Of a stretch of 64,000 nucleotides of DNA, positions 3,370 through 30,793 are shown in pieces. Each line of letters starts with the position of its first letter. The stretch's first letter is position 1. The position numbers and the translations under genes are program-made. Under the pieces are notes generated by a model. The model was not told the origin of the DNA. It saw only the letters and a list, made by a program, of their open reading frames with translations, and searched no databases. The DNA is taken from assembly GCA_046329105.1 (NCBI GenBank), contig JAXLVH010000001.1, positions 614,686-678,685 on the forward strand, in the 5' to 3' direction. This stretch comes from Flavobacteriales bacterium (GTDB taxonomy: Bacteria > Bacteroidota > Bacteroidia > Flavobacteriales_F > PHOS-HE28).

Positions 3370-3908
3370 CTTCAGCCGGTGTTACCGCGCGAAGGTATTT
3401 GCTGTTCGGCCAACCGGGAGATCGTTCATCGGGCATTCGACGCCGTGGTGTCAGGCAGGTGCAGCACGCTGGATCCACAACGGCAGTACGTGGATATACC
3501 TGGATGGCCCTTGCATAGGCCTTGCTTATCGGGATCATCGGATCCGTGTTCAACCGTGTGCCGCCATGCAACCCGTTGCGCCGCCAGTCGCATGGAGGAT
3601 CGACCCGGCGGCCCTGCTCCGGTAGAATCGCACCACGTGTAGCATCGGTCCGGTCAACCTCTCGGATCGGGGTCCCAAAATGCTTTGCGAATTGGTCCGA
3701 TCCAAATGCTCCCCCACGTCCTTTTACGTGTACCACACCACGTTGAATTACGCTGGCGCCCGCTTGCGTGATCCATCTGCTTTGTACCGCACCCATCGCC
3801 GTTCCTCGCGCCAGCACGGCCATACCTCATTTCGGGCATGGTGGTTCCGGCAGGTGTTCCTGCTTTGGGTGGTGTTGCTCGACGTACTGAACCAACAACA
3901 ACAGACCG

Positions 3909-3983
3909 ATGAAAACACATTTCAGGCTGAAGGCCGCGCTGTGCGTGGCGCTGTGTATCCCTCTATGGGGGGGGGTATTTTGA
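3909..3983 (+). other. Out-of-frame 5' segment (signal peptide) of the large T9SS gene
   Basis: ATG3909 encodes MKTHFRLKAALCVALCIPLWGG then stops at TGA3981; removing one G from the G9 run joins it in frame to 4042..8133. Confidence 0.8.
3967..3975 (+). repeat. G9 homopolymer tract in signal-peptide coding region
   Basis: ctctat-GGGGGGGGG-tattt read directly; longest homopolymer I noticed in the window. Confidence 0.9.
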
Positions 3984-4041
3984 ATCGCTCACGCCGCAGG
4001 CCAGGGGGCAGGCGGAGGCTTGGGCGATCGGGAATCAACGG

Positions 4042-7000
4042 GTGGACATGTACGGGACGCAAGCGCCCTTCCCGGTGACCGCCTTGCCGCAACACCCATT
4101 GACCGAGGAGAACACCTACCACGGCGAGATCGCCACACGATCCCAATTCGTACACACCGATGGCGATTGCCAATTGGTGATGTTCGGTATTGATGGGAAC
4201 ATCTACGACAAGGATGGTTACCTGATAGCGGATGTGGATGATGGTGATGGAAATGAGGAGGATTGCGCACAGTGCGTCGAACCGGGGGTAATGGAGATGC
4301 TGGCCATTCCAGTTCCGGATCATTGCGGGTTGTACTACATCTTGAGTGCCGGCCATCAATACGGATGGGACAGTCAAGCGGATGATTACGTGGTTCAAGG
4401 TGTCACTGCGGTGCATGCAGCGGTGTTGGACCTGACCCGGGAGAACCCGTACGATACGGACCGACTCGGCAGGCTTGTGACCCGTGATGAGATCCTTGAC
4501 ATGGATTACCCGGAGCTTTACGATTGGATGGAGACATTGATGAACACATCCATGTACGTGGCAAGTCCGAATGGTCCACCGGACATCCTGTTGCAAGCTC
4601 CGCAAGCATGCAAATCGCCGCTGGTCCTACTCCGGGCTGTGCGTAGCACGGCCTTGGGCGAAGATGGGTATTGGCTCTATGCCTCGCATGCGGGCAAGGT
4701 GGTGGAATATCGGGTCAATAGTTCGGGTATCCATTTTGTTGCCGCAATACCCACCTATCTGGATCCACTCCCCATTGGCATGACCGCTCGAAACTATTCG
4801 AGCGATGCCACCGCGATCCAAGTGGACAACGAGGTGAGATTGGCACTCACCAACGGAGGCCAACCCCTGTACGCGTACCCCGATATCGCTGGTACGTCGC
4901 CCGGCTTCGGTGCGGTGGTCATGCGTTTCAATGCGCAAACCGGTGCGCTGATCGGCAGTGTGCAAGGCCTGGCACCCGGCCAGGATGGATACCCCGATCT
5001 GGTGGATGTGAATTATGTGGCGCCGCAAGCACCAGGGCCCGGGCAGGATGGTGCCGCCGCCTGCGCCTGGTTGGATAATGGTGCCAAATTGTTGGTCACG
5101 GGCCGGGAGGTGGAAGGGAACGACTGGGTCCCCATCATGGCGGTGTACGACATGGCCACGGCCACCTGGGACGATATCCTGCCGGAATTGGGACTTCAAG
5201 GTGGAGGGGCGGACGACTACGTGCGCAGCCGCGCCCACCGCAACACCGCACCGGATGGCATCGGGGACGCTATCTACCTACCGCACCCCGCAGGTATCGC
5301 GGCCATCACGGGTGTGGATAACGGCAACTATGCATTCACTGCCGCCGTGCCCACAGTTGCACCCTGCATACCACCCGTCCTGGACCTTCTGGCGAATGTC
5401 TTGTACGAACCCCGCTTCATCAATGCCCAGGTTGCTGGCGATAACAGCGTAGAACAATACAACCGTGCCGAGTGTTGCACGTTCCGCACCACCTACGAAG
5501 GTTACAACGGCCACACCTTCCCCAACATCCCCGGCACCTACCATTGGTACCCCGATGACAACCCCTTTGGCAATTGCGGCAATGTGCTCTTCACCGGTGA
5601 TCTGATCATCCCACCGGATGTCACTCTGTTCATTCACAACATGACCCTGCGCTTCGCACCCGAGGCCCGCATGATCGTAAGGGCCAAAGGATACGTCTCG
5701 GCCATAGCATGTTACCTGACCAACGAGGATTGCCTGGGTCCGCGTTGGCCCGGGATCCGGGTAGAGGGGGATCCGAACGACCCGCTACAGAGCGAGATCC
5801 TCCAAGGCCGCCTACAGTTGTCCCATACCACGGTGGATGATGCCGTGGTGGGCGTGTGGTGCAGCAGCGACGATGGGCCAGGCCATACCGGGGGCATTGT
5901 GCGCACCTACTGGTCCACCTTCAGCAATTGCATCGTTGGTGCACGGATCGAACAATACCATCGGATCATCAATGAGGTCGAAGTGGTGAACAAATGCTCC
6001 TTCAACAGCACCAGCTTCGATGTCACACTGTCCTGGCCCGATCTGCAGGAGTTGCCCCAAGCACAGATCCACCTCTTTGATGTGAACGGCGTGGCCGTGA
6101 ACCGTTGCGACTTCTCCAACGTGTATCCTGTGGAGTTTATGGAGCCGCACCAACGCGGCGTGGGCATCCTCTCCTTCGATGCCTCCTACCGCTGCAAGGG
6201 TTTCGGCGACTATGCCAACAACCGGTTCCGCCGACTGGCCGTGGGGGCCCTGAACATCTGGAACGATCCGCTCTTCGCCAACCAGGTGGACGGCATGCAC
6301 TTCGACCGTAACTTGGTGGGCCTCTACGACATGGGCTGCCTCTACAGCATGGTCACCAACAACCGGTTCACCACCATGGCCAACACAGAGCCTGTCAGCT
6401 TCCTGAGCCTGGGCATGTACATCGATCAGAGCGCGGGCTACCTCGTGGAGCGCAACATCTTCGAGGATGTCGATCTCTCACTGCCCCACGAGGTGCACAG
6501 TGTGGGCATCTGGTTCCATGGTGACCAACCCGTAGAGAACCGGATCTACGACAACGCCTTTTACGGACTTACGTTGGGCAACGTGGCCGAGGGCGTGCAT
6601 CACCATACCACGGGGACGGTACCCCCAGTTATGACCGGGCTGCAATGGCTTTGCAACCTGTATGAGGGCGGTTTCGTCGATCAGTTCCTGCTCTCCCCGG
6701 ACGGCTCCATCAAGCAGCAGCAAGGCGTGAACAATCCGCTTGCCACCGCTGGCAACGTCTTCGTGGGCCAGAAGGATTGCCAGACCCAGTATGAGCCGGT
6801 GGTCTTCGCGGACCATGTCGATGAGTATGTGATCGACAATGTGGTGGTACCCTACGTGGTCACCTACCACTACTACGCCCACGACCAAAGCCCCGATTGC
6901 CGACCGGAGTGCGTGGAGGATGAGAACAACATTGACATTACACCGACAGGTGGATTTTACAATCTGGCTGAAGTAGAGGGAGCATTGCCGTTCAATCCGG

Positions 7001-8133
7001 CCCAACATTGCAATGGTGGCATCCTGGACGCCATTCACAAAAGCGTTCAGGAGCACCGGGCGGACTACGCGGCCAAGTACGCGCAATTGGCCAGTGCGGC
7101 CCTGGCCTGTGCCGGGCAGCTGGACAATGGCGAACGGGTGGAGGTGTTGGAAGCGATAAAGGCCGAGCCCGCTTGGCCCAGCCACCAGTTGCGCGGCTAC
7201 CTGCTGGCCCGCAGCCCGCTGAGCGAGGAGGCCATCATCACGGCCATCAACCGGGCCGAGCCCATGGACCCCTGGCACCTGACCCAGGTGCTCATCGCCA
7301 ACAGCAAACTCTCGGACCCCATCTGGGCGGCCTTGGACCACAGCGAAGCGCTGTCGCCCTTCTTCTACCAGATGGTGCTCGACCACCAGGAGGATCCCAG
7401 CATCCGCCAGATCCTGATGGAGGAGCTGGCCCTGCGCGCCTACGAGAAGGACACCGAGCAACGCCTGCTGGTGCTGGCCCTGCACGAGGACAGTACGTAC
7501 ACCGGCAAGTTGGATACCCTCCTCTCCATCCTCAGCACGGACACACTGGGGCTGGGCCGTACGGCGGCCTATCAACTGGCGCTGGCCCACGGGCGTGGCA
7601 CCGAGGCCGCCGCACTGGCAGCGGCCATGGCCGGGGATGCGCGTTTTGAGCAGCTGCTCGGCCTCGGCGCGTTGCAATTGGGCCTCGATCCCGGCTGGTC
7701 GCAGGCCGGACACAACGAGGTGATGGCCCTGCAGGACATGGCCGCCAGCGGCAAAAAGCTGGGCCGGGGCGCGGCGTGGGGCATCCTGTACGCGCTGGGC
7801 GCCACCGACAGCCTGCCCACCGGCCTGCTGCCCGTTGAGTACCGCTCGGCACGGGCGAATGAAACGGACGCCAGCACAGCGGAGCGGCCCGTGGTAGGCG
7901 CCTACCCCAACCCGGCGAAGGATCGGCTGATGATCACGTGGCCCGCTGAGGTGGACGCGGGTACCTTGGAGGTGATCGATGCCCGGGGCCGTTCGGTGCT
8001 TTCTCAAGCACTTGGATCACGTACCGGTTTTGTGGAATTGGACGTGCGCGGCTGGGCAGATGGACTGTACTTGGCGCGTGTGCTACGCGATGGCCAGGTG
8101 GTGGGTGAGACCAAATGCGCGATCGCCCGATGA
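4042..8133 (+). CDS. Large T9SS type-A CTD protein (propeller-like N-terminus, parallel beta-helix-like middle, helical region); true start probably 3909 via the G9 frameshift
   Basis: 1363-aa open frame; CTD VVGAYPNPAKD...IDARGR...GWADGLYLARV; repeated N.F/N.I beta-helix-like turns; fold calls are inference. Confidence 0.85.
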   Translation: MDMYGTQAPFPVTALPQHPLTEENTYHGEIATRSQFVHTDGDCQLVMFGIDGNIYDKDGYLIADVDDGDGNEEDCAQCVEPGVMEMLAIPVPDHCGLYYILSAGHQYGWDSQADDYVVQGVTAVHAAVLDLTRENPYDTDRLGRLVTRDEILDMDYPELYDWMETLMNTSMYVASPNGPPDILLQAPQACKSPLVLLRAVRSTALGEDGYWLYASHAGKVVEYRVNSSGIHFVAAIPTYLDPLPIGMTARNYSSDATAIQVDNEVRLALTNGGQPLYAYPDIAGTSPGFGAVVMRFNAQTGALIGSVQGLAPGQDGYPDLVDVNYVAPQAPGPGQDGAAACAWLDNGAKLLVTGREVEGNDWVPIMAVYDMATATWDDILPELGLQGGGADDYVRSRAHRNTAPDGIGDAIYLPHPAGIAAITGVDNGNYAFTAAVPTVAPCIPPVLDLLANVLYEPRFINAQVAGDNSVEQYNRAECCTFRTTYEGYNGHTFPNIPGTYHWYPDDNPFGNCGNVLFTGDLIIPPDVTLFIHNMTLRFAPEARMIVRAKGYVSAIACYLTNEDCLGPRWPGIRVEGDPNDPLQSEILQGRLQLSHTTVDDAVVGVWCSSDDGPGHTGGIVRTYWSTFSNCIVGARIEQYHRIINEVEVVNKCSFNSTSFDVTLSWPDLQELPQAQIHLFDVNGVAVNRCDFSNVYPVEFMEPHQRGVGILSFDASYRCKGFGDYANNRFRRLAVGALNIWNDPLFANQVDGMHFDRNLVGLYDMGCLYSMVTNNRFTTMANTEPVSFLSLGMYIDQSAGYLVERNIFEDVDLSLPHEVHSVGIWFHGDQPVENRIYDNAFYGLTLGNVAEGVHHHTTGTVPPVMTGLQWLCNLYEGGFVDQFLLSPDGSIKQQQGVNNPLATAGNVFVGQKDCQTQYEPVVFADHVDEYVIDNVVVPYVVTYHYYAHDQSPDCRPECVEDENNIDITPTGGFYNLAEVEGALPFNPAQHCNGGILDAIHKSVQEHRADYAAKYAQLASAALACAGQLDNGERVEVLEAIKAEPAWPSHQLRGYLLARSPLSEEAIITAINRAEPMDPWHLTQVLIANSKLSDPIWAALDHSEALSPFFYQMVLDHQEDPSIRQILMEELALRAYEKDTEQRLLVLALHEDSTYTGKLDTLLSILSTDTLGLGRTAAYQLALAHGRGTEAAALAAAMAGDARFEQLLGLGALQLGLDPGWSQAGHNEVMALQDMAASGKKLGRGAAWGILYALGATDSLPTGLLPVEYRSARANETDASTAERPVVGAYPNPAKDRLMITWPAEVDAGTLEVIDARGRSVLSQALGSRTGFVELDVRGWADGLYLARVLRDGQVVGETKCAIAR

Positions 8134-9638
8134 GGCGGGCGATCGCCATCGCGGTGTTGCTGGCAGGGAGCATATATGCTCCCTGCCAGAGCACCTTCAT
8201 CGTGCAATTCGACAGCGTTCAATCAGGCCACGATGCCAGTGGCCGGTCGATCATGGAGACCGAGAATGGACTCATCGTATTCGCGTGGCAACATTCTGAT
8301 GATGGTACTGGGCGGATGCGGGGCGCTGTGTATAAGCTGGCGCCCGATGGCACATTCTTAAGCCGATACGAGATCGGTACGGGCGAATTGACTGGATCCT
8401 ATTTCGGGCGGTGGGATCCTGTGACCCGAATGAATACCGGAGGCTTCGCTTCGATGTTCGTACGCAGTAATGGGTATGGATACAACATCGATATGATCCG
8501 GTTCGACGACAACGGGGATGTGCTTTCGTTCAATGATGTGATGGACTCTCCGCCAGAAGATTCGATCGTGGTCGGATCCCGGCAATTGCGGCAAACCGGG
8601 GATGGAGGATTCGTCCTTTGCGGTGCGTTTTCCCTTCCAGATGGATATGCCAAAGCCCTGCTGGTGAAATTGGACAGCACCGGCGCAGTCCAATGGCAGC
8701 GGACGTACGATGCGGCGGGCCAGAGCTACGATGCCATCAGCGTGGCGCAATACGTGGACGGCGGCTATGTTCTGGCCGGCTACCGCTTGCCGCAGGGCTT
8801 GAACGGACTAGGGTTCTTGATCCGTACGGACAGTGCGGGCAATGAACTTTGGCGACGGCATTTCGGCAACCAAGGTGGAGCGTGGTGCCCGGTCCGGGTG
8901 TGTGCAGATAGTGGTATCGTTGTGCTGGGTTCATACGCCGAACCGGACTGGCCATGGGATTGGTACCAATTGTTGCTTGTGAAATACGATGCACAGGGTG
9001 GTCTTCTGTGGCAGACCCGTTGCAACTACTTCCAGTACGTTACCGCGTATGACATGGAAGTATTGCCCGATCAGAGCATCATTACCTCAAGCGCGTACTC
9101 TTCCCTGATCGGTCTCACCAAGTTCAGCTCAGCGGGCGACAGTTTGTGGTGCCGTTGGTTATGGGCCATGGGCACCAATTCCTTCCATAGCGCTTACGAT
9201 GTGGAACTGGCGAGCGATGGCGGCTTCCTCCTCACCGGGCAGGTCACGCAGATGAGCGCCGGAAACCCGCACCCTGGCCAGGAGACGATCTTCGTGATCA
9301 AGACCGACAGCCTGGGCTGCGTGGTACCGGGCTGCCAGAACGTGGGCGTGCAGGAGTTCACCATCGATCTGCAGGAGCACCTGGAGGTGAGCCCCAACCC
9401 CGCCAATGACCGGGTGAACGTGCTGCTCACCCTACCCGAAACGGGTGAGGTCGAAGGCCAAGCCCGTGTATTGCTGTTGGATGCCACCGGCCGAACGGTG
9501 CTTGAACAGCCCATGCAACGGAACCTGAACCAACTACGCACCACCGTGGAGGTGAGCGCCTTGCCAGCAGGGATGTACTACTTGCACCTGCGCGATGCGA
9601 AGCGGTGGTTGGCGGGGAGCAAGCTGGTGGTGGAGTGA
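8130..9638 (+). CDS. T9SS type-A CTD protein with beta-propeller-like repeats (paralog 1)
   Basis: ATGA overlap with upstream stop; signal MRRAIAIAVLLAGSIYAPC/Q; repeats LVKLDSTGAVQW, LIRTDSAGNELW, LVKYDAQGGLLW, LTKFSSAGDSLW; CTD VSPNPAND...LPAGMYYL. Confidence 0.88.
   Translation: MRRAIAIAVLLAGSIYAPCQSTFIVQFDSVQSGHDASGRSIMETENGLIVFAWQHSDDGTGRMRGAVYKLAPDGTFLSRYEIGTGELTGSYFGRWDPVTRMNTGGFASMFVRSNGYGYNIDMIRFDDNGDVLSFNDVMDSPPEDSIVVGSRQLRQTGDGGFVLCGAFSLPDGYAKALLVKLDSTGAVQWQRTYDAAGQSYDAISVAQYVDGGYVLAGYRLPQGLNGLGFLIRTDSAGNELWRRHFGNQGGAWCPVRVCADSGIVVLGSYAEPDWPWDWYQLLLVKYDAQGGLLWQTRCNYFQYVTAYDMEVLPDQSIITSSAYSSLIGLTKFSSAGDSLWCRWLWAMGTNSFHSAYDVELASDGGFLLTGQVTQMSAGNPHPGQETIFVIKTDSLGCVVPGCQNVGVQEFTIDLQEHLEVSPNPANDRVNVLLTLPETGEVEGQARVLLLDATGRTVLEQPMQRNLNQLRTTVEVSALPAGMYYLHLRDAKRWLAGSKLVVE
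9300..9638 (+). repeat. 339-bp direct repeat, copy 1 (CTD module); copy 2 at 11031-11369
   Basis: Manual comparison: about 22 mismatches in 339 nt, with perfect blocks 9300-9373 and 9475-9598. Confidence 0.92.
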
Positions 9639-9869: not shown

Positions 9870-11369
9870 ATGAAGCATACGATCGCGCTGGTCTGCTTTG
9901 TCCTGCTGTGCGGCCACGTGGCCGCGCAGCAGGTGCAGACCTTCAATGTGGTGCGGCAGAACCTGGTCCAAGGACCTGCACTGGGGCTTTCTGTGAAGGA
10001 GGTGCCGGAAGGATACCTGGTCTTTCAGGTACAACGTGGATTGTCTGGAACGCCGCAGGACCCCTTTGTCAGCCTGTTCGACCGGCAGGGCGAACTTGTC
10101 TGGGAACACGATTATGTGGTACCCCGGTACGGATTCCTCGGTTATCCCGACCCCGTTTGCCGCACGCCTGATGGCGGCTTCGCTTCGGGCGTGTCCGTGT
10201 TCGGCTGGACATCCGATATCGACAGCCTCTTTCTCTGGCGCTTCGATGCACAGGGCGATACGGTCTTCACACGTTTCCTGATGGCCGATAGCACCATGAC
10301 CATCCGCAAATGCATCCGGACGATGAACGGGGACTTCGTGTTCACCGGTCTGCATCATCCTCCTGTTGAGCAATATCTGTTGCGCACGGACAGCATGGGC
10401 AACATCAAGCACTACGCTGGCTTCGCCAACTTTGATGGATATGGAGGAATGGGGCTGGCCGAAGACCCATCAGGCAATTTCTACCTTACCGGTTTTCAGT
10501 ATAATAGTTCTCACCGTGGCAGTCTGATCAAATGCGACAGCGTGGGTAACCTGTTGTGGACGCGTTTGTACGAGATGGAGAACGGGATATCCGAATGGCT
10601 CTCGGCCCTGGTCTTGTCCGACTCGAGCGTGCTTGTTGTTGGTGGAAAAGGAATCAGCTTCGGGAACAGCTCAGCTATCATCTCGCGCTATACATCGAAT
10701 GGCGAACTCTTGTGGACCGACGATGTTGTCACGGGCATCGGGGGACCTTCCTACATCAACCGTCTCACGGATGCGTTCCAGCGACCTGACGGTACGATCG
10801 TGGTGGCCGGGCAGTATGAATGGGAGGGTATCGGTTTCTTCGGGTTTGTTCAAGGCTACAGCATGGCAGGCGATTCCCTCTGGCGGAGATCATTCACCTA
10901 TTTTACCGGAATAGGCGACGGAGATCATAACATCTGGGATGTGGAGTCCACGAGCGATGGAGGTATGATCCTTACCGGAGAGGCGTACAACCATGCTCAA
11001 CCTGGCTCGCCTGTGAACATGTGGCTGGTAAAGACCGACAGCCTGGGCTGCGTGGTACCGGGCTGCCAGAACGTGGGCGTGCAGGAGTTCACCATCGATC
11101 TGCAAGAGCACCTGGTGGTGAGCCCCAACCCCGCGAGCGATCGGGTGAACGTGCTGCTCACACTACCCGAAACCGGAGAGATCGAAGGCCAGGCACAGGT
11201 ATTGTTGTTGGATGCCACCGGCCGAACGGTGCTTGAACAGCCCATGCAACGGAACCTGAACCAACTACGCACCACCGTGGAGGTGAGCGCCTTGCCAGCA
11301 GGGATGTACTACTTGCACCTGCGCGATGCCAAGCGGTGGCTGGCGGGGAGCAAAGTTGTTGTAGAGTGA
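9870..11369 (+). CDS. T9SS type-A CTD protein with beta-propeller-like repeats (paralog 2)
   Basis: Signal MKHTIALVCFVLLCGHVAA/Q; repeats FDRQGELVW, FDAQGDTVF, KCDSVGNLLW, YTSNGELLW; CTD nearly identical to paralog 1. Confidence 0.88.
   Translation: MKHTIALVCFVLLCGHVAAQQVQTFNVVRQNLVQGPALGLSVKEVPEGYLVFQVQRGLSGTPQDPFVSLFDRQGELVWEHDYVVPRYGFLGYPDPVCRTPDGGFASGVSVFGWTSDIDSLFLWRFDAQGDTVFTRFLMADSTMTIRKCIRTMNGDFVFTGLHHPPVEQYLLRTDSMGNIKHYAGFANFDGYGGMGLAEDPSGNFYLTGFQYNSSHRGSLIKCDSVGNLLWTRLYEMENGISEWLSALVLSDSSVLVVGGKGISFGNSSAIISRYTSNGELLWTDDVVTGIGGPSYINRLTDAFQRPDGTIVVAGQYEWEGIGFFGFVQGYSMAGDSLWRRSFTYFTGIGDGDHNIWDVESTSDGGMILTGEAYNHAQPGSPVNMWLVKTDSLGCVVPGCQNVGVQEFTIDLQEHLVVSPNPASDRVNVLLTLPETGEIEGQAQVLLLDATGRTVLEQPMQRNLNQLRTTVEVSALPAGMYYLHLRDAKRWLAGSKVVVE
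11031..11369 (+). repeat. 339-bp direct repeat, copy 2 (CTD module)
   Basis: Offset 1731 bp from copy 1; starts aagaccgacagcctgggctgcgtggtaccgggc in both. Confidence 0.92.
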
Positions 11370-18685: not shown

Positions 18686-20572
18686 ATGCGTGCCCTGCTC
18701 GCCCTCAACCCCTATTTCCGCCGCTATTGGGGACGCATGGCGCTGGGCATCTTGTTCACCGCGCTCAGCAGCTTGTTCCAGATCTTCCAGCCGCAGGTGG
18801 TGCGCGAGGCCTTCGACCTCATCGGTACAAGCCTCGCTCTACGCGATCAACCGCTGGACCACGGGCACTTGGACGTTCCTGCCGAGATCAACAGTTGGGT
18901 CGGTTGGACCGGTATCGACCTGGACGCCCGGCTCAACGGAGCTGCCACTGATGAGGACAGGCGTACCAATGTGCGCTGGTTCGTCGCGTTCTATGCCCTG
19001 CTGTTCGTGGCTTTCACGCTGCTTCAAGGCTTCTTCATGTTCCTCATGCGCCAGACGATCATCGTGGTGAGCCGCCTGATCGAATACGACCTGAAGAACG
19101 ACATTTTCGCCCACTATCAGCGGCTGGACCGCGGCTTCTACAAGGGCCACAGCACGGGGGACCTGATGAACCGCATCAGCGAGGACGTGGGCAAGGTGCG
19201 CATGTACATCGGTCCGGCCATCATGTACATCCTGGGCATGGTGGTGCTGAGCGTGATGATCGTGTGGGTGATGGTCGGGGTGAATGTGAAGCTCACCCTG
19301 TGGGTGCTGGCACCACTCCCCCTGATGAGCATCGCCATTTATTACGTGAGCGACCTCATGAACAAGCGCGGCCTGGCGGTGCAGGCCCAGCAGAGCGTAC
19401 TCAGCAGCCTAGCGCAGGAGAGCTTCAGCGGGATCCGGGTGATCAAGTCCTTCGCCCGGGAGAAGTTGGTCTTCGGGCGCTTCCGCGATGCGGCGCACAC
19501 TTATCGGGAACGAAGCCTGGACCAGGCCCGGGTGGACGCCATCTTCATGCCGGTGATCATGTTGCTGATCGGCCTGAGCACCGTACTGACCATTTTCGTG
19601 GGGGGGCTCATGGTGATCGATGGCAACAGTTCGGTCACGGTGGGCAACATCGCCGAGTTCACCATTTACGTGAACAAGCTGACCTGGCCCTTCGCCAGCC
19701 TGGGTTGGATCACCTCGCAGGTGCAGCAGGCCGCAGCCAGCATGCAACGCATCAACGAGTTCCTCGGTACGGCCCCCGTCATCAACCCCGGCCCGGTGAA
19801 GTCCAGCACCATCCGGGGAGAGATCACCTTCGAGCAGGTCTCCCTCACCTACCCTGAGACCGGGATCGAGGCACTGAAGGACGTGAGCTTCACCGTTCCC
19901 GTGGGCGGCACGCTGGCCATCACAGGCCGTACCGGGTGCGGCAAGACCACCATCGCGGGACTCATCGGGCGTTTGCACGACCCTACCACCGGCCGTGTGC
20001 TCATCGATGGTATTCCGATCCGGGAATACGACCTCGGCACGCTGCGTCGCCAGGTAGGTCAGGTGCCGCAGGATGTCTTCCTGTTCAGCGATACGATCGA
20101 CCGGAACATCGCTTTCGGGCTTCACGAGGAACTGTCGGCAACCGAACGCGAGACACGGATCCGCGCGGCCGCCGCCACCGCACATGTCCACCAGAACATC
20201 ATGGACTTTCCCAACGGGTACGGGACCATCTTGGGTGAACGGGGCGTCACCCTGAGCGGTGGCCAAAAGCAACGAGTGAGCATTGCCAGGGCCGTGGTGG
20301 GCGAGCCGCGCATCCTGGTATTCGACGACCCGCTCAGTGCGGTGGACACGGCCACGGAGGCGGCCATATTGAACTCCCTGGAAACGGTGATGGAAGGCCG
20401 CACTACCGTGATCATCAGCCATCGGATCAGCGCTGTGCAACGGGCCGACCGGGTGCTCGTGCTGGAGGATGGACGCATCGCCGAGCAGGGTACCCATGCC
20501 GAACTTCTTGCGATGAGGGGCTTGTACGCCACCCTGCACGAGGAGCAGTTGTTGGAGGAGCAGCGGATCTGA
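18686..20572 (+). CDS. ABC exporter, fused permease/ATPase (MdlA/MsbA-like)
   Basis: TMD with STGDLMNRISEDV; Walker A GRTGCGKT, LSGGQKQR, FDDPLSAVD, ISHR; TACTTTCG box at 18669-18676 supports the 18686 start. Confidence 0.93.
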   Translation: MRALLALNPYFRRYWGRMALGILFTALSSLFQIFQPQVVREAFDLIGTSLALRDQPLDHGHLDVPAEINSWVGWTGIDLDARLNGAATDEDRRTNVRWFVAFYALLFVAFTLLQGFFMFLMRQTIIVVSRLIEYDLKNDIFAHYQRLDRGFYKGHSTGDLMNRISEDVGKVRMYIGPAIMYILGMVVLSVMIVWVMVGVNVKLTLWVLAPLPLMSIAIYYVSDLMNKRGLAVQAQQSVLSSLAQESFSGIRVIKSFAREKLVFGRFRDAAHTYRERSLDQARVDAIFMPVIMLLIGLSTVLTIFVGGLMVIDGNSSVTVGNIAEFTIYVNKLTWPFASLGWITSQVQQAAASMQRINEFLGTAPVINPGPVKSSTIRGEITFEQVSLTYPETGIEALKDVSFTVPVGGTLAITGRTGCGKTTIAGLIGRLHDPTTGRVLIDGIPIREYDLGTLRRQVGQVPQDVFLFSDTIDRNIAFGLHEELSATERETRIRAAAATAHVHQNIMDFPNGYGTILGERGVTLSGGQKQRVSIARAVVGEPRILVFDDPLSAVDTATEAAILNSLETVMEGRTTVIISHRISAVQRADRVLVLEDGRIAEQGTHAELLAMRGLYATLHEEQLLEEQRI

Positions 20573-21084: not shown

Positions 21085-21121
21085 AAAAAAAAGGAACGCC
21101 CGGTGTTCGTCCGGGCGTTCC
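21085..21121 (-). terminator. Rho-independent terminator of the CUB-repeat gene pair
   Basis: GGAACGCCCGG / CCGGGCGTTCC stem with adjacent A8 (U8 on - strand). Confidence 0.85.
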
Positions 21122-21139: not shown

Positions 21140-24100
21140 TCAGTGCGCCACCTGCAACTGTTCGGTCTTCGACCAGTCGTCGGTGTACAGGCGTACGGCA
21201 TAGGTCCCGTTCGCCAGAACGCCCAGGTCAAAGCGCTCGGTCCGGGCCGCATTGGCGCTGAAGCGCTCGCTCATCACCAGGCGACCGGTCATGTCCAGCA
21301 CATCCATGCTCACCAGACCTGTGAGCCCATCGGCGGTGCGCACGTACAACTCCCCGGTCGTGGGATTGGGGAACATGGCGAAGTGGTCCACCGTGAACTC
21401 GTTCTCTCCCACCAATCCGCAACTCACGCTCCAGTATAGCGCCGGGGTGGCCTGTCCGGTGGCGCATGAGCCAGCTTGGCTGCTGATCACCAGCACGGTA
21501 AGGGCGTTGGCCGGATTGCTGCTCGAAATGGACAGACCTCCGATCTGCCCACCCTGGTTGCCCATGTACACGATCTGCGCCGTGGTATCCAACCCGTTGT
21601 ACACTTGGATGTAGTCGTTGACCAGAAGCTGCCCGTACTCGAAGGTGACCGTGATGGGGTCCGAGGTACCACTGGCGTACACGAACCATGCGGTATCCGC
21701 ATTGGAGTAGCAATACTCCTGGCCCACGGCATCGCATGCGAGGGTGACACAGCTATCGGGCGCCAAGAAATACGCAGGGCTCACCTGTTTGCACAAGGGG
21801 GTGTTCACGCTCTGCACGACCACATTCCCCGTTGCGCCCAAGGGGAAGGGTCCAACCGTGTACGTCCCGGTATGAACACCTGTAAGGGTGTCGCCATTGA
21901 AGGTATTGCGGATGAGGAGATCCGTGGTGTTCTGGCCGAGGTCGGTCACATTCACATCAACCGAGAATCCATTGTGGATGCAATCGGGCACCATTTCGAA
22001 GGTGGCCGTGGGCGGGGTGCAGTCCAGGCAGTACACGTTCCAGATCCACTCGGTCATGCTACCGCTGGAACAAGAGATGCTCGGGTCAGAACTCATTTCC
22101 ATGTAGATCGAGTCGCCAATGCTGACCACGGTGGTATCCGTGAGGTTGGTCGTTAAGAAACCGTTCGTCCAGAGCAGGGTTCCCGTGTTGTCCGATCCAT
22201 CGTAGATGGACAGATGATCCCACGAGGCACTCTCGATGGTTCCTTGCAGGAACTGGATCACCAGTGGCGCGCCGCTCGTGCTGGTGTACAGCCAGTGGTG
22301 GAAATCGCTGAGTTGATAGCAGTAGCTGTCCTCGTAGATCACGGAGTCCGCGCAATCGATGATGATCGGGCAGAATGCATTCTCCAGGACACCGAGGTTC
22401 ACGTTGCACAGGGAGTTGGAGTCGTTCACCAAGGTGAGCGTGACCGGTGTGCCAACGGGGAAGGGACCGGCGGTGTACGTGCCCGGCGCGGTGATCACCG
22501 TGGGAGGCAGGCCGACGTCGTTCGTCAGGTCCACCGAGGGGTCGTTGCCCATCGCGGTCACATCCACCGACACGGACCAGATCTGCGCATCGCAATCGGT
22601 GGTGATCTCCCCGACCGTGGCCGTAACGGGAGAACAGTCCAGGCAATCCACCGTCCACTGCCACATGGTCTGGTTCCCGGTCGCACAGGACACGCTGCCG
22701 TCGGAACTCATCACCATATAAATGGAACCACTCGGCGCGATCAGTGGCGGCAGGGTGGACAGGTCTGTACCACCGAACGTGTTCGTGAAGAGCAGGTTCC
22801 CCGTATTGTCCGTGCCGTCGTAGATGTCCAGATGGTCGAAACTCACGCTTTCGATGGTGCCCGCGCTGAAATCCAGCGCCAGGGGCAGGCCCTCGTTGTC
22901 CTGGTACAGCCATTGGTGCGAATCGCTGTTCAAATAGCAGTAACTCTGATCCAGGGCCGGGTTGGCACAAGGGATGATCAACGGGCAGAAGGCGTTCTCG
23001 AACACCCCCAGATCCACGTTGCAGAGCGCGTTGGCATCGTTCACCACGGTGAGGGTGATCGGAACCCCCACCGGGAAAGGACCTGCGGTGTACGAACCCG
23101 GCGCACTCACCACGGTAGGCGGATAGCCCTGATCGTTCGCGATCTCCACTTGTGGATCGGTCCCGAGGTCGGAGATCTCCACGGAGATCGAGAAGATCTG
23201 TCCGTCGCAATCGGTGGTCACCTGGCCGGCCGTGGCCGTGGGCGGCACACAATCGAGGCAGCCCACCACGTAATCCCACGGCAGCGCGCTGCCATCGGAA
23301 CAACTGGTGAACTGGGTGGAGGTCAGTTTGAGCGTGAGTGCGAAGTCGGGGTTGGAGGAGGTGAAGAACATCCCGCTGAGGTCACCATTGGTGCCCGTTC
23401 CCTGATAGATGATCGGGGCTTGATCATTCAAGCCATCGTAAATGGTGAGCAGGTCCCCATCGAACTGGTAGATGCCACCGCTGTTGAACTGGAGGCGCAC
23501 CGGGAACCCGTTGTTCCCCTGGAAGATCTGGATGAAGGTCTCGGAATTTCCGTAGCAGTATGAATACTGATCCGGACCACAACTGATGATCGGACAGGGG
23601 TAGTTGGTCAGCGGGCCCGAGCTCACGTTGCACAGGGAGTTGAGTTCATTCTCCAGAACCACCGTTACCGTGGTTCCTTGTGCGAAGGGACCCACGGTGT
23701 AGGAGCCCGTTGCGGTGGCCGTTACCACCGGCGCACCGCCCGTGTTGGTGATGTCGATCGACGGATCGGATCCCATGGCGGTAACATCCACCACCACATT
23801 GAAGATCCCAAGTGCGCAGTCCAGATCGACAGCGAACGTGGCCTGTGGCTGTACGCAGTCCAGACAGCCCACCTGCCATGCCCAGGAAGTGAAACTGCCC
23901 GTGGAGCACGATACGCTGGCATCCGAACTCATCTGCATGAAGATGTTCGGGCCGGTGCTGATGGCCAGCACACCTGTGAGGTCCTGCGTGCTGAAGACAC
24001 CCGCGTGTGTGAACAGGATCGGGTATGAGTTGTCGGGACCATCGTAGATCGTGAGGTGGTCCCAGTTGTCGCTTTCGATCTGGCCTGCACTGAAAATAAG

Positions 24101-24325
24101 CGCCAGTGAGGTGGTCCCATCAGAACTCGTGTACAGCCAGCTCTGCGAATCGCTGGGGCCATAGCAATAGGTCTCATCCAGCGGTGGCGCACCACAGGTG
24201 ATGATGTTCTCCCCCGGGGGCGCTGCCGGTGGTGCCAGCGGAACGGGCAAGGGCACCAGGGCCATGGCCTTGAGGGTGAGCAGGGTGGAGCCTATCGCGG
24301 CCAAGCGTAACGTACGGACGTTCAT
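21140..24325 (-). CDS. T9SS type-A CTD protein with five Cys-rich CUB-like repeats (1061 aa)
   Basis: Signal peptide; ~205-aa unit YCY..W.Y..F..G.IE..DHL.IYDG..SD.SVSC..W.W.V.CLDC; CTD MFPNPTTG..LANGTYAV. Confidence 0.88.
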   Translation of the reverse strand: MNVRTLRLAAIGSTLLTLKAMALVPLPVPLAPPAAPPGENIITCGAPPLDETYCYGPSDSQSWLYTSSDGTTSLALIFSAGQIESDNWDHLTIYDGPDNSYPILFTHAGVFSTQDLTGVLAISTGPNIFMQMSSDASVSCSTGSFTSWAWQVGCLDCVQPQATFAVDLDCALGIFNVVVDVTAMGSDPSIDITNTGGAPVVTATATGSYTVGPFAQGTTVTVVLENELNSLCNVSSGPLTNYPCPIISCGPDQYSYCYGNSETFIQIFQGNNGFPVRLQFNSGGIYQFDGDLLTIYDGLNDQAPIIYQGTGTNGDLSGMFFTSSNPDFALTLKLTSTQFTSCSDGSALPWDYVVGCLDCVPPTATAGQVTTDCDGQIFSISVEISDLGTDPQVEIANDQGYPPTVVSAPGSYTAGPFPVGVPITLTVVNDANALCNVDLGVFENAFCPLIIPCANPALDQSYCYLNSDSHQWLYQDNEGLPLALDFSAGTIESVSFDHLDIYDGTDNTGNLLFTNTFGGTDLSTLPPLIAPSGSIYMVMSSDGSVSCATGNQTMWQWTVDCLDCSPVTATVGEITTDCDAQIWSVSVDVTAMGNDPSVDLTNDVGLPPTVITAPGTYTAGPFPVGTPVTLTLVNDSNSLCNVNLGVLENAFCPIIIDCADSVIYEDSYCYQLSDFHHWLYTSTSGAPLVIQFLQGTIESASWDHLSIYDGSDNTGTLLWTNGFLTTNLTDTTVVSIGDSIYMEMSSDPSISCSSGSMTEWIWNVYCLDCTPPTATFEMVPDCIHNGFSVDVNVTDLGQNTTDLLIRNTFNGDTLTGVHTGTYTVGPFPLGATGNVVVQSVNTPLCKQVSPAYFLAPDSCVTLACDAVGQEYCYSNADTAWFVYASGTSDPITVTFEYGQLLVNDYIQVYNGLDTTAQIVYMGNQGGQIGGLSISSSNPANALTVLVISSQAGSCATGQATPALYWSVSCGLVGENEFTVDHFAMFPNPTTGELYVRTADGLTGLVSMDVLDMTGRLVMSERFSANAARTERFDLGVLANGTYAVRLYTDDWSKTEQLQVAH

Positions 24326-27662: not shown

Positions 27663-29657
27663 TCAGTGTTCCTGCTGATACGCCCGCTGGACCGCGTACA
27701 TCCCGGGTTTCCAATGGCCTTCGTAGTCGATGAGGCTCCAGCTCGGACCGGGCCAGCAATCGTTCAACTGCCAGAAGAGCGTACCCATGCAACGCGGTCG
27801 CGCACCCAGGTGCGCCTCAATGGCCATGCGGTACGCCCGGGCCTGCACTTCCTGGCTGGCCCGGATGAACGCACCCAGGGTCCTCGGCTCCACGCCCAAC
27901 TCCCGCTTGATCGCGTCAATGATCGGCTTGTCGGTCTTGTAACTGCGCTGCAGACGCTTCATCGTTGGCGATCCCAGGTATAATTCTGATGGGGGGTTGT
28001 ACCGGGCGAGCAAAGCGCTGTCCGGGTAGCTCTGGAATCCGTACTCACTCACGAAGCGCCCCACGTTGTTCGCGAACGAGGAGAAGGCACTGTCGCCGTG
28101 CCACACGCCCCAATAGTGCAGGTCGCCCCGGGTGAGGCCCTCGGCATTGCCCCAATTGCTCAGCGGTGAGGTGGGTGTGTACAAGGGGGATCGGAAGAAC
28201 GGCGACAGGTATCCGTTCCGGGCATTGAACAGTTCCGTGGATGCGTTCGCCACGCTGATCGAATCGGCCCCATGCAGATGGTAGCGCTCCTGCCACCCCC
28301 AGTTCTTCCACGCCACGTCGAGTTCGTTGTTGCCACACCAGATGGCGAGCGACGGGTGCCTCAGCAGGCGATGCTGCTGTTGGAACGCTTCCTGTTCAGC
28401 ATTCTCCATGAAGGACTTCGAACCTGGCGGAAGTTGGGCGTACATATGGTCCTGCCATACCAGGATCCCCGCCGTGTCGCACGCATCGAAGAACGCATCC
28501 GGTGGATAGATGCCACCGGCCCATACGCGCACCATGTTCATCCCGGCCTCACACATGTGCTTGACCAGTTCCACCCACTTCCTGTCCGCGTCCAGCGAAG
28601 GCACCATGTGCGGTGGAACGATGTTGCAACCCTTCATGAACACGTTCTTGCCATTCACCTTGAACGCGAAAGCCTGACCATCGGCGTCCCGCGTGGTGTC
28701 GAACTCCACGGTACGGATACCGATGCGCATTTCATGTACGCTGCGGACCGTATCGTCGCACGTCAAACGGGTGCGCACCCGGTACAGGGGTTGTTCGCCA
28801 GAACCACGCGGATCCCATCGCTTGGGCCGCTTGATCCTGAAGGTGACCCCATCCAGGTGGCCGGAACAATTGAGCACCGCAGGCCGCTCGCTGTCCGGTT
28901 CCCACAGTTGCACCGTGGTTCCGCACTTGGAGTCCAACTCACCGACCGCTCCATCGCTATCAACCACCACCTTCAGGTGTACCGTATTCCCATGATCGAA
29001 CTGGGTGGGAACCACCTGCCTGATCCTCCCGACACTCCACCCCCGCAACTCCACCCCCTGCCAGATCCCGCTCGTGACCAGCCTCGGGCAGAAATCCCAG
29101 CCGAATTGATACGCCGCCTTCCGGATGTACGGGCTCACCCCGCTGGGATCGTTGTCGTGGGGCAACTGGATCCCGTACGCATCGCGCAGCTTCGCTCCTT
29201 CTCTGATCGGGCTGCGGAAGATCACCCTCAACTCGTTGGGGCCCTCACGCAGCAGATCCTTCACCTCCCATTCCCACGTACGGAACATGTTGTTCGCCCG
29301 GCCCACCAGGGAGTCGTTCAGGTAGACCTCGGCGAAGGTGTCGAGCCCTTTGAACACCAGATCGAGGTGCCCGTGACGCAGCAGGGTGTCCGCAACGAGG
29401 ATCGTCCGCCGATACTCCCAATCCTCGTTCTCGATCCACTGCACACTGTCGATGTTGCTCCCCCGGTAGAAGTCGGGGATCAGTCCATGGCGCAGCAGGT
29501 CGGTCTGCACCACACCGGGCACCTCCGCATCATACCACCGGTCCTTCCCCACCTGCTGGAATCTCCACCCGTTGTTCAACGGGACCAGGACCTCCTGGGC
29601 GTGGAGGACGCAGGCCATGCAACATACGACCGTGATCAGCAGGATCGCTCGTTGCAT
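27663..29657 (-). CDS. GH2 beta-mannosidase-like glycoside hydrolase, ending just after the catalytic domain
   Basis: Signal ..CVLHA/Q; VPG.V.TDL, FKGLDT, RKAAYQFGWD..PRL..SGIW, NMVRVWAGGIY, WCGNNE, FVSEYGFQSYP, WQLNDCWP. Confidence 0.92.
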   Translation of the reverse strand: MQRAILLITVVCCMACVLHAQEVLVPLNNGWRFQQVGKDRWYDAEVPGVVQTDLLRHGLIPDFYRGSNIDSVQWIENEDWEYRRTILVADTLLRHGHLDLVFKGLDTFAEVYLNDSLVGRANNMFRTWEWEVKDLLREGPNELRVIFRSPIREGAKLRDAYGIQLPHDNDPSGVSPYIRKAAYQFGWDFCPRLVTSGIWQGVELRGWSVGRIRQVVPTQFDHGNTVHLKVVVDSDGAVGELDSKCGTTVQLWEPDSERPAVLNCSGHLDGVTFRIKRPKRWDPRGSGEQPLYRVRTRLTCDDTVRSVHEMRIGIRTVEFDTTRDADGQAFAFKVNGKNVFMKGCNIVPPHMVPSLDADRKWVELVKHMCEAGMNMVRVWAGGIYPPDAFFDACDTAGILVWQDHMYAQLPPGSKSFMENAEQEAFQQQHRLLRHPSLAIWCGNNELDVAWKNWGWQERYHLHGADSISVANASTELFNARNGYLSPFFRSPLYTPTSPLSNWGNAEGLTRGDLHYWGVWHGDSAFSSFANNVGRFVSEYGFQSYPDSALLARYNPPSELYLGSPTMKRLQRSYKTDKPIIDAIKRELGVEPRTLGAFIRASQEVQARAYRMAIEAHLGARPRCMGTLFWQLNDCWPGPSWSLIDYEGHWKPGMYAVQRAYQQEH

Positions 29658-29728
29658 GCGTGCCGAAAGGGGCCAGGATGCACGGTGCCCGCGCACCGGC
29701 TGATCCGTACACCGGAGCCTCGTGGTAC

Positions 29729-30481
29729 TCATCGCAGACCCGCTTTCACCAACGCATTCATCACCCCTTCGATCTTCGCCGTATCGGGCTCCACCGCGAA
29801 GTTCACACCGGCATGTTCGGCACTCATGGCCACACCGGCATGCTCCAGCAGTGCAGGCCGTTGGGCGGAAAAATGTACCTCCCGCACACCGGTGCGTTCC
29901 ACCAGTTCCACCACGTTGCCCGGGTTGATGCCCGCGCCCGCGGCAATGGTGATCCGCTCCCCCGCCCCTTCCACCAGGCGCTTCAGCATCGCCGCTCCGT
30001 CCAGCGCACGCGTTGCGCCACCCGAGGTGAGCACACGTGCCGCACCGAAGCCGATGCATTGCTCCAAGGCGGCGGGCATGTCCGCGGCATGATCGATCGC
30101 GCGGTGAAAGGTGAGTTCGCGTCCGTTGAGCGTAGCGCGTACGAGGTCCATCAATTCCGCATCGGCCTGGCCATCGGCACGCAAGGCCCCTGCAACAATG
30201 CCCGCGGTATCGTCGGCTACCGCGAGCAGCAAGGCATCCCGAAGGATGATCTGCCGCTCGTCGGTGGTATACCGGAAGCCGCCGGGGGAAGGCCGCACCA
30301 GCACTCGGCTCCACGTACCGGTACCCTTCGATCGCTCACGGACCAAACTCACGAGTCCGGGTCCGGGCGTGAGCCCGCCAGCAGCCAGCCAGGTGCAGAC
30401 CTCAACACTATCGGCACCGGCGTTCATGGCCGCCATTGCTTCATCCACCGAGGTGATACAAACCTCCACCCGTACGCGCAT
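29729..30481 (-). CDS. cutC: CutC family protein (copper homeostasis annotation)
   Basis: VEVC, GA..VE.C, GGLTP, LVRPSPGGF.Y, LTFHRAID, RVLTSGG, EVHFSA. Confidence 0.93.
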   Translation of the reverse strand: MRVRVEVCITSVDEAMAAMNAGADSVEVCTWLAAGGLTPGPGLVSLVRERSKGTGTWSRVLVRPSPGGFRYTTDERQIILRDALLLAVADDTAGIVAGALRADGQADAELMDLVRATLNGRELTFHRAIDHAADMPAALEQCIGFGAARVLTSGGATRALDGAAMLKRLVEGAGERITIAAGAGINPGNVVELVERTGVREVHFSAQRPALLEHAGVAMSAEHAGVNFAVEPDTAKIEGVMNALVKAGLR

Positions 30482-30649
30482 GGGGGCAAGGTAGCTGTCG
30501 CGATCGCGAACCCCTCGGACAGGGTATGGCTATCCGTTCTTGAAGCCGGGGCTCCGGAACCGGCCGATCGCCCTTACCAAAAAGGTCCGTCCAACGGTTC
30601 GGCCGCGTGCGCCATATTTGCACCCCGTTCGCGGGCATGTTGACATCCT

Positions 30650-30723
30650 GGGGCGATAGCTCAGCTGGCCAGAGCGCCGCGTTCGCAATGCGGAGGTCGA
30701 GGGTTCGACTCCCTTTCGCTCCA
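30650..30723 (+). tRNA. tRNA-Ala(CGC)
   Basis: Acceptor GGGGCGA/TCGCTCC with G3:U70, D-arm AGCTCAGCTGGCCAGAGC, anticodon stem CCGCG-TT CGC AA-TGCGG, T-loop GGTTCGACTCC; ends A then CCC, so CCA not encoded. Confidence 0.96.
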
Positions 30724-30728
30724 CCCCG

Positions 30729-30761
30729 AAGAAGCCCCGGCGAACCGGGGCTTTCTTTCTT
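30729..30761 (+). terminator. Terminator after tRNA-Ala
   Basis: GAAGCCCCGG-CGAA-CCGGGGCTTT followed by CTTTCTT. Confidence 0.8.
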
Positions 30762-30793
30762 CAGTCCCTGATCAGCGCACCGATCCCTTCGCC

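Follow-up and report, generated by a model that had tools for sequence, protein, structure and literature searches.

We examined a 64,000-nucleotide stretch of a Flavobacteriales bacterium genome (contig JAXLVH010000001.1, positions 614,686 to 678,685; hereafter the window), in which a gene for a large cargo protein of the type IX secretion system (T9SS) is interrupted within its signal-peptide region by a run of nine guanines (G9). The open reading frame (ORF) that encodes the signal peptide ends shortly after this run, and the body of the protein continues in another frame. The features of the locus, in window coordinates, are the following:

3711..3908, + strand: conserved 5' region, presumed to hold the promoter and 5' untranslated region, moving with the gene
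3909..3983, + strand: signal-peptide ORF, MKTHFRLKAALCVALCIPLWGGVF then stop, with a basic n-region and a hydrophobic h-region; the stop is TGA 3981-3983 in the G9 state
3967..3975, + strand: G9 homopolymer, the proposed slipped-strand switch; in frame if G8 or G11
3976..4008, + strand: remainder of the signal peptide in the +1 (body) frame, YFESLTPQARG, after frame restoration
3978..3981, + strand: T4 run directly 3' of the tract; T3 in the sister species (from alignments)
4009..8133, + strand: body ORF, encoding the mature cargo protein of ~1370 residues (stop included)
7903..8100, + strand: T9SS type A C-terminal sorting domain (CTD), residues 1332-1397 of the 1407-residue reconstruction

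Translation from ATG 3909-3911 gives 24 codons before the TGA at 3981-3983, and the G9 run occupies codons 20 to 23. The large ORF lies in the +1 frame with respect to this ATG (4048 − 3909 = 139), and that frame is open from 3931. As listed, the large ORF spans 4042-8133 and encodes 1363 residues from a GTG, the first start codon in frame; the gene caller placed its start at ATG 4048. Deletion of one G produces an uninterrupted protein of 1407 residues containing CIPLWGGYFESLTPQARGQAEAWAIGNQRVDMYGT. A run of G8 or G11 gives 1407 or 1408 residues with the signal peptide, and G9 gives a 24-residue peptide. Translation and run counts confirmed every coordinate given in an earlier note on this DNA, made from the sequence alone, which had described the ORF from ATG 3909, its stop at 3981 and the G9 run at 3967-3975, and had proposed that G8 would join the signal peptide to the 1363-residue ORF. 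The frame can be restored in two ways, by contraction of G9 to G8 or by the loss of one T from the T4 run at 3978-3981.

The Sec signal peptide of this gene is in frame only once the frame has been restored. Visual inspection and homology place its predicted signal peptidase I site between 4008 and 4009 (ARG/QAEAW, the slash marking the cut). The start context of ATG 3909 is A-rich (ACAACAACAGACCGATGAAAAC). We rejected by eye a lipoprotein reading of the signal peptide (LCVALC), which has no lipobox-like L-x-[GA]-C motif. At the other end of the reconstruction, the C-terminus is recognised by Por_Secre_tail (PF18962; E = 2.7e-8, over the gathering threshold) and by TIGR04183 (E = 1.2e-5, above the cut-off), which bears out the identification of the protein as a T9SS cargo.

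The G9 tract is the longest run in the window (61% G+C) and its sole homopolymer of at least nine bases. Runs of G4, G5, G6, G7, G8 and G9 number 146, 31, 2, 1, 0 and 1, respectively. The next G or C run is G7, at 19600, and the longest C run has six bases. Set against the genome's own avoidance of long runs, the tract is a clear outlier. A model of independent and identically distributed bases nevertheless permits about one run of this type in the window, and the finding, described below, that orthologs carry a tract at the corresponding position is therefore a stronger argument than the rarity of the run. The G run is also the 3' arm of a small hairpin at 3958-3984 (CCCTC-TAT-GGGGG), followed by TATTTT, which a scan flagged as terminator-like (five overlapping hits against 0.9 expected). 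This hairpin is kept in the sister species and is absent from the lineages with C tracts. It could influence transcription or slippage, or could simply result from the IPL codons.

The window's own protein and six relatives, each called without a signal peptide, came up in a homology search, and we then compared the DNA that encodes them. In the window species, every one of ten contigs (the window, L003, L004 and L040-L046) reads CCCTCTAT-G9-TATTTTGAA. These contigs come from MEGAHIT and SPAdes metagenome assemblies of several projects, plus three metagenome-assembled genomes (MAGs) from NCBI. Three of them (L040-L042) represent a variant ~94% nucleotide-identical to the window, which has G9 too. 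The earlier note had held a homopolymer sequencing error to be equally plausible and had named a uniform G8 as the outcome that would speak against a switch. Homopolymers of at least nine bases are indeed error-prone on every platform, and Illumina sequencing has trouble reading through G-tracts (PMC9187656). However, G9 was recovered from different samples, projects and assemblers, and random errors are not expected to fall all in one direction. Relatives share the same +1 offset with G and with C tracts, including contigs of ~60x and ~200x coverage (L034 and L035). Because ten independent contigs of the species carry G9, an error in sequencing or assembly that masks a true G8 is effectively excluded, and we consider it extremely improbable.

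The called start raises a different alternative, in which the gene calls are right, the protein begins at ATG 4048 (or GTG 4042) without a signal peptide, and both the mini-ORF and the G run are irrelevant. The representative of the window-species cluster and all other listed members that bear an N-terminus do start MYGTQAPF, and for most called relatives the start coincides with the equivalent position or precedes it by a few residues (in the six from the homology search, at or near M(D)LYG(A/T)QAPF). Yet the Met at 4048 is not conserved (RVDMYG, RVDLYG, WVDMHS, WARMDP), and the region around it is GC-rich, unlike the A-rich context of ATG 3909. Conservation in the body frame runs upstream through GQAEAW back to the tract, and the signal-peptide frame upstream of the tract keeps its hydrophobic character across lineages, in diverged orthologs as MKTHFKLKAVLSAALCIPLW, MDKRFLIRVAITVAVCA and MDKRFLLKVAFAVALCA. 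A T9SS CTD would, moreover, be useless without Sec export.

Homologs without a tract bear directly on this point. Eleven distant homologs of 30-36% identity (L008, L015, L016, L020-L024, L026, L027 and L029) carry a signal peptide in frame, which ends directly before the aligned Gln. Their sequence at this site is A-x-A/Q-(A/S/T)-D-A-W (for example ACA/QADAW, AHA/QSDAW and ASA/QTAW), aligned with ARG/QAEAW of the window and with Gln at +1. These in-frame signal peptides define the intact architecture and indicate that the called starts are wrong. The protein-collection representatives P0001-P0007 are all called from a start downstream of the signal peptide, and P0007 is mis-called although its locus has an in-frame signal peptide and no tract. 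We therefore regard a genuine start at 4048 or 4042 as very unlikely. The claim of the earlier note that Gln follows the cleavage site, as in six other secreted proteins of the window, holds for the two downstream cargo genes that the check covered, and for the tract-less homologs. The site equivalent to the tract reads AAWGGWG or AAWCGWGG in L008 and L022, which suggests, from sequence, that the G tract arose from a W-G-G-W codon cluster.

Near these tract-less distant homologs we also observed a divergent XRE-type helix-turn-helix (HTH)-like gene that ends in a poly-G run of 10-17 bases (VFGKLRGGGGG; LLPGSRGGGGGG), labelled from its own sequence and from the HTH Pfam match at the equivalent position in L008. 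The runs lie on the minus strand at L021 184-194, L022 712-725, L023 79-95, L026 1200-1213 and L029 147-156. L023 (17 bases) and L026 (14 bases) are identical on one side of the run and differ in its length by a multiple of three, and the lengths 11, 14, 14 and 17 are all in the same phase. These runs may represent another type of homopolymer element associated with the cargo family.

Comparison of the tract in orthologs, which the earlier note had advised, revealed a G or C homopolymer at the same signal-peptide position in both orthologs and paralogs. The second outcome that the note had named as a refutation, a lack of any such run in orthologs, is thus contradicted as well. The out-of-frame relatives are as follows:

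L001, sister species, 70% identity: G10 + TATTTG, out of frame
L002, L005, L006, L007, L009, L011, L012 and L030, group at 47-55% identity: C11 after MDKRFLIRVAITVAVCA, out of frame
L019, paralog of 29% identity on L009's contig: same 5' cassette + C11, out of frame
L013, homolog of 33% identity: C12, out of frame
L034 and L035, distant lower-GC members (~60x and ~200x coverage): G11 after MKNKLHFPMVAFVLCISFIFN, out of frame

In all these lineages the tract lies at the end of the hydrophobic core of the signal peptide, and the body continues in the +1 frame. The same-site homopolymer thus spans orthologs of 47-70% identity, a paralog of 29% identity and distant members, and consists of G or C in runs of 9-12 bases. 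Two further sequences were set aside. In L010 (48% identity; a k141 contig), the first ~130 nt are unrelated up to the tract position, and this probable assembly break or chimera is uninformative. L014 (32% identity) has T19 and then G21 at 78-117, where the start of the signal peptide or the tract is expected; it was left uncounted, and probably reflects an assembly break or an artefact of two-colour chemistry at a genuine tract. The L032 contig opens with C13; assemblies tend to break at such tracts.

One MAG, STL-BAC50 (JAXLVG01), contains three family members, with tracts at L009 5911-5921, L012 5911-5921 and L019 5899-5909, two of which lie on one contig, separated by ~10 kb. Around C11, from about −45 to +50, their 5' cassettes differ very little, and their proteins are 29-55% identical to that of the window; the pattern suggests gene conversion or strong constraint at the nucleotide level. 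In the same MAG, an in-frame stop at L009 9301-9303 (about codon 1167) splits the gene into MFN8352207 (1108 residues) and MFN8352206 (226 residues). The near-identical copies in L002 and L039 are intact, and the L009 stop is either a strain-specific nonsense mutation or an error.

In-frame alleles occur alongside out-of-frame alleles in two sister lineages. In the DNA of the sister species, L025 and L038 have G9 in frame, whereas L001 has G10 out of frame. Likewise, L039 has C10 in frame, whereas L002 and L009 have C11 out of frame. In both comparisons the 130-140 nt shown around the tract are otherwise identical, from which we conclude that tract length varies at the DNA level and toggles the frame. 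Of the three sister-species contigs that share this tract context, two are in frame, a proportion too high to be put down to assembly error; a fourth contig with variant flanks (L028) has G10 and is out of frame. The 90% clusters also hold full-length proteins that bear the signal peptide, P0023 (MKTHFKLKAVLSAALCIPLWGGVFETLTPQAKGQAEAW) and P0027 (MDKRFLIRVAITVAVCAPPPEGPGSW). In the alignment, the window reads G9 + TATTTTG and the in-frame sister allele G9 + TATTTG. The in-frame length is therefore G9 in the sister species and G8 in the window, because three Ts follow the tract in the former and four in the latter.

The body of the gene is under purifying selection. Body ORFs are intact, with no stops in any ortholog, and pairwise ratios of nonsynonymous to synonymous substitution rates (dN/dS) range from 0.22 to 0.26. 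Between the window and L040, both of which are G9+T4, dN/dS is 0.26 at a dS of 0.16, and all 17 gaps preserve the frame. Intact bodies with low dN/dS, including between variants that share G9+T4, indicate that the gene is still used and is not a decaying pseudogene. A pseudogene of the window species, inactivated by the extra T at 3978-3981 and now decaying, would agree with the out-of-frame state of all ten contigs and with the derived state of T4 relative to the sister species. It is nonetheless hard to reconcile with a 4.1-kb body without a stop, with the constraint and the frame-keeping gaps between the two G9+T4 variants, and with the retention of the out-of-frame arrangement with intact bodies in many other lineages. 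We judge this explanation most improbable.

We propose that the tract is a slipped-strand phase-variation switch within the cleaved Sec signal peptide of a large T9SS surface protein, and that the window allele is OFF; on balance, we consider this probable. Under this model, translation would start at ATG 3909, and in the G9 state the ribosome would finish after 24 codons at TGA 3981. The 4-kb body would then have neither a signal peptide nor a conserved start of its own, and no exportable protein would be made. Output of two downstream cargo genes, which overlap or adjoin the large gene, would probably be reduced too, by presumed polarity. Loss of one G during replication, giving G8 (G11 would serve as well), would fuse the signal peptide to the body, and the in-frame pre-protein would be exported by Sec, cut at ARG/Q and passed to the T9SS through its CTD. 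Because the tract sits in the leader that is cut off, in-frame changes in its length would leave the mature protein unaltered. The window allele would be OFF, with one base more than the in-frame length, the prevailing state in nature.

The locus has the anatomy of a contingency locus, with a repeat in the 5' coding region that exceeds background and whose change in length toggles between full-length and truncated products. Length polymorphism among strains, with both alleles, was seen in two sister lineages, and the window species was G9 in 10 of 10 contigs. By both anatomy and comparison, then, its sequence marks it as a candidate contingency locus. A phase-variation candidate with the allele OFF, as put forward in the earlier note, is the best-supported reading, given in-frame and out-of-frame alleles on identical contexts in two sister lineages. 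Switching within populations of the window species, its rate, the polarity on the downstream genes and the biological reason are what we infer from this; the reason could be, for example, escape from phage or grazers, or the cost of the protein, set against adhesion.

Several observations weigh against a switch of this kind. Among 28 contigs with a tract, 24 exceed the in-frame length by exactly one base; three others are in frame, and the last has the other phase. The out-of-frame lengths G9, G10, C11, C12 and G11 compare with in-frame lengths of 8, 9, 10, 11 and 10. Loci that have reached synonymous saturation relative to one another (dS 0.5-1.1) still share C11, and G9+T4 in the window against G10+T3 in the sister species are compensating changes that preserve the offset. 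If the tract were hypermutable and drifting freely, a wider range of lengths and both OFF phases would be expected; the observed pattern calls for strong insertion bias, for selection of this OFF state, or for both. No variation in tract length was seen among the ten contigs of the window species, which, as assembled consensus, represent only the majority genotype and revealed no mixture within a population. L039, one of the three in-frame contigs, is a low-coverage assembly (k-mer coverage ~2.5), the only contig of the three for which coverage was recorded.

The offset is not absolutely fixed, since G10 in the distant member L032 puts the body in the other out-of-frame phase. In the +1 OFF phase, every lineage meets a stop 2-8 codons beyond the tract; reading in the third frame would extend the signal peptide by a basic tail of 55-65 residues. 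This OFF phase may be favoured by insertion bias, by its early stop, or by both.

The regularity of the offset is the chief attraction of programmed recoding, in which the in-frame length plus one would be the functional wild type, from which a set fraction of full-length pre-protein is made, and the rare in-frame alleles would be mutational by-products. One way would be slippage of RNA polymerase on the G9-C12 run, whose length equals or exceeds that of the RNA:DNA hybrid, so that the transcript lacks one nucleotide. Alternatively, the ribosome might slip by +1, with tRNA-Gly or tRNA-Pro on GGG_G or CCC_C, both in principle prone to shifting; CCC CCC CCC GGA encodes a stall-prone PPPG. As expected of a +1 frameshift site, position and direction are conserved, the same 24 contigs needing the loss of one nucleotide in G and C tracts of four lengths. 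Recoding would also account for the persistence of the offset across saturated synonymous divergence and in all ten contigs of the window species, and for the compensating changes in tract and T run between the window and the sister species. The continuous purifying selection on the body and the near-invariance of the C-tract surroundings, even between 29%-identity paralogs, point the same way.

Recoding fits other observations poorly. In-frame alleles exist on otherwise identical contexts, and among the sister contigs sharing a context they are the majority; L032 departs from the expected phase. The lineages with G tracts, C tracts and low GC share no upstream Shine-Dalgarno (SD)-like motif, adjacent stop or common structure, and we saw no shared stimulatory element among them by eye in the alignments, no fold or covariation test having been run. 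The stop in the zero frame lies at a variable distance, 2-8 codons away. The run length of 9-12 nt suits transcriptional slippage by hybrid length, but the bases are G or C, and documented bacterial transcriptional slippage uses A/T runs (PMC1088944). A closely analogous system in Bifidobacterium breve has been attributed experimentally to replication slippage (PMC9187656). Any G9-C12 run also slips at the DNA level, so recoding at most adds to phase variation. Recoding as the explanation of the locus appears unlikely to us, though we regard it as a serious rival, and these runs may well do both.

Phase variation of this type has several precedents. In Neisseria gonorrhoeae, pilC reportedly has a poly-G tract in the region encoding its signal peptide, and Neisseria opa genes are said to carry CTCTT repeats in theirs. 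As in pilC and opa, the repeat of the window gene lies in the leader coding region, the frame toggles a surface protein, and in-frame changes are removed with the leader. Those genes belong to host-adapted pathogens with families of contingency loci and documented rates, whereas here the organism is environmental and one tract occurs in 64 kb. The poly-G loci of Campylobacter jejuni carry G8-G11 in 5' coding regions, and their length-dependent indel bias concentrates alleles on one or two lengths. In C. jejuni, however, ON and OFF lengths are both common among isolates, whereas here one OFF phase dominates at any length. The invertible promoters and shufflons of Bacteroidales, in the same phylum, also produce surface heterogeneity, but by site-specific recombination and not by slippage.

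The closest likeness is to the pilus genes bbr_0113 and bbr_1889 of B. breve UCC2003, in which a Sec-signal ORF and an LPXTG body ORF are split by a G-tract (PMC9187656). In the reference the tract is one base too long, and productive events are −1+3n (PMC9187656). Maximum-depth sequencing showed replication slippage with a small in-frame subpopulation, and transcription downstream showed polarity (PMC9187656). Both systems have a signal ORF split from a body ORF without its own start by a tract of ~9-12 bases that is one base too long. The B. breve tract is conserved across species of the genus, and the downstream genes of the operon show polarity. The differences are that B. breve is a Gram-positive actinobacterial gut commensal with sortase/LPXTG anchoring and measured heterogeneity, whereas the window gene is a T9SS cargo of Flavobacteriales from activated sludge, with G and C tracts in its family and consensus genotypes only. 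By analogy, this published precedent favours phase variation over recoding. The family also resembles the slippage sites of dnaX and insertion sequence (IS) elements (PMC1088944), and prfB-type +1 frameshifting, in its conserved position and direction and in a run at least as long as the RNA:DNA hybrid. Those systems differ in using A/T runs, or an adjacent stop or rare codon combined with an SD-like stimulator upstream. The present family conserves none of these features and does have in-frame alleles.

Beyond its CTD, the cargo protein matched no domain in Pfam or NCBIfam, and a profile search of PDB sequences returned nothing meaningful. AlphaFold2 models of its two halves, built from a seven-sequence alignment, were poor (mean predicted local distance difference test scores of 60 and 45), and Foldseek gave only generic beta-propeller matches (TM scores of 0.2-0.47). 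The models loosely indicate a beta-rich N-terminal half and a helical region before the CTD. We accordingly describe the protein as a putative large beta-rich surface protein and make no functional claim beyond that. The window encodes further cargo genes:

8115..9638, + strand: downstream T9SS cargo gene with Por_Secre_tail and the in-frame signal peptide MRRAIAIAVLLAGSIYAPC/QSTF
9870..11369, + strand: second downstream T9SS cargo gene with delta-60/SBBP-type repeats and a CTD; signal peptide MKHTIALVCFVLLCGHVAA/QQVQ
21140-24325, − strand: another large T9SS cargo gene (1061 residues) with Por_Secre_tail and no tract

The start of the first of these overlaps the stop of the large gene by 19 nt. 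The two are probably co-transcribed, possibly with polarity in the OFF state. The same order, the large gene followed by a gene of the 8115..9638 type, is found in L003, L005, L006, L007 and L039. Besides that of the large gene, the window encodes three CTD proteins. A PorP/SprF gene adjoins the orthologs in L002, L006 and L039. In ortholog neighbourhoods, PorP/SprF and large PKD or CHU_C proteins are often encoded upstream, with between one and three CTD proteins of ~500 residues downstream, a layout that we take to resemble gliding-adhesin-type surface-protein clusters. An A8 run lies at 21085, just 3' of the stop of the 21140-24325 cargo gene. Genes for GH2 and GH92 glycoside hydrolases are also present in the window (region 27663-33712).

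Among strains of the window species, shared sequence starts sharply at 3711 (blastn; L003 626, L041 1164 and L042 1095). Across the ~160 nt preceding the ATG (about 3750-3908), the 70%-identity sister species retains much of the sequence, for example the blocks GGGCATGGTGGTTCC and CTGCTTTGGG. Upstream of 3711, the same gene (100% or 94% identical) follows a pyridoxamine-oxidase gene in the window, L004 and L040; its upstream neighbour is a Disulph_isomer gene in L003 and L041, and something else in L042. At this boundary, either the cassette has moved or the neighbourhood has been rearranged between strains. A sigma-70 promoter scan gave one weak match (3600-3628), which we did not use, the consensus being inappropriate for Bacteroidota. 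By source names and record titles, members of the cluster are 'Flavobacteriales bacterium' MAGs, and two sample names refer to activated sludge.

Annotation pipelines systematically mis-call these genes, and the family consequently looks signal-peptide-less in databases. The strict pattern of in-frame length plus one also offers a clean natural test of DNA-level switching against recoding at G/C runs. It is conceivable, though we doubt it, that Flavobacteriales use G/C homopolymers in signal peptides as a conserved recoding signal that sets a low, fixed output of T9SS cargo operons; that in-frame mutants at the DNA level would then act as occasional high expressers seems to us equally doubtful. 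Such a site, if real, would be the first case of programmed recoding at a G/C run to be conserved across a family of bacterial proteins.

Simple-repeat phase variation is textbook biology of host-adapted pathogens. To our knowledge, the known switches in Bacteroidota are invertible DNA segments, and in the literature searched we found no report of homopolymer switching of a T9SS cargo or in Flavobacteriales. Phase variation at the tract would mean that a homopolymer switch has been kept over long evolutionary time in uncultured, free-living Flavobacteriales of wastewater. It would act on a giant surface protein secreted by the T9SS, and probably on its operon. Bet-hedging with surface proteins, possibly against phage or grazers, may therefore operate in engineered ecosystems.

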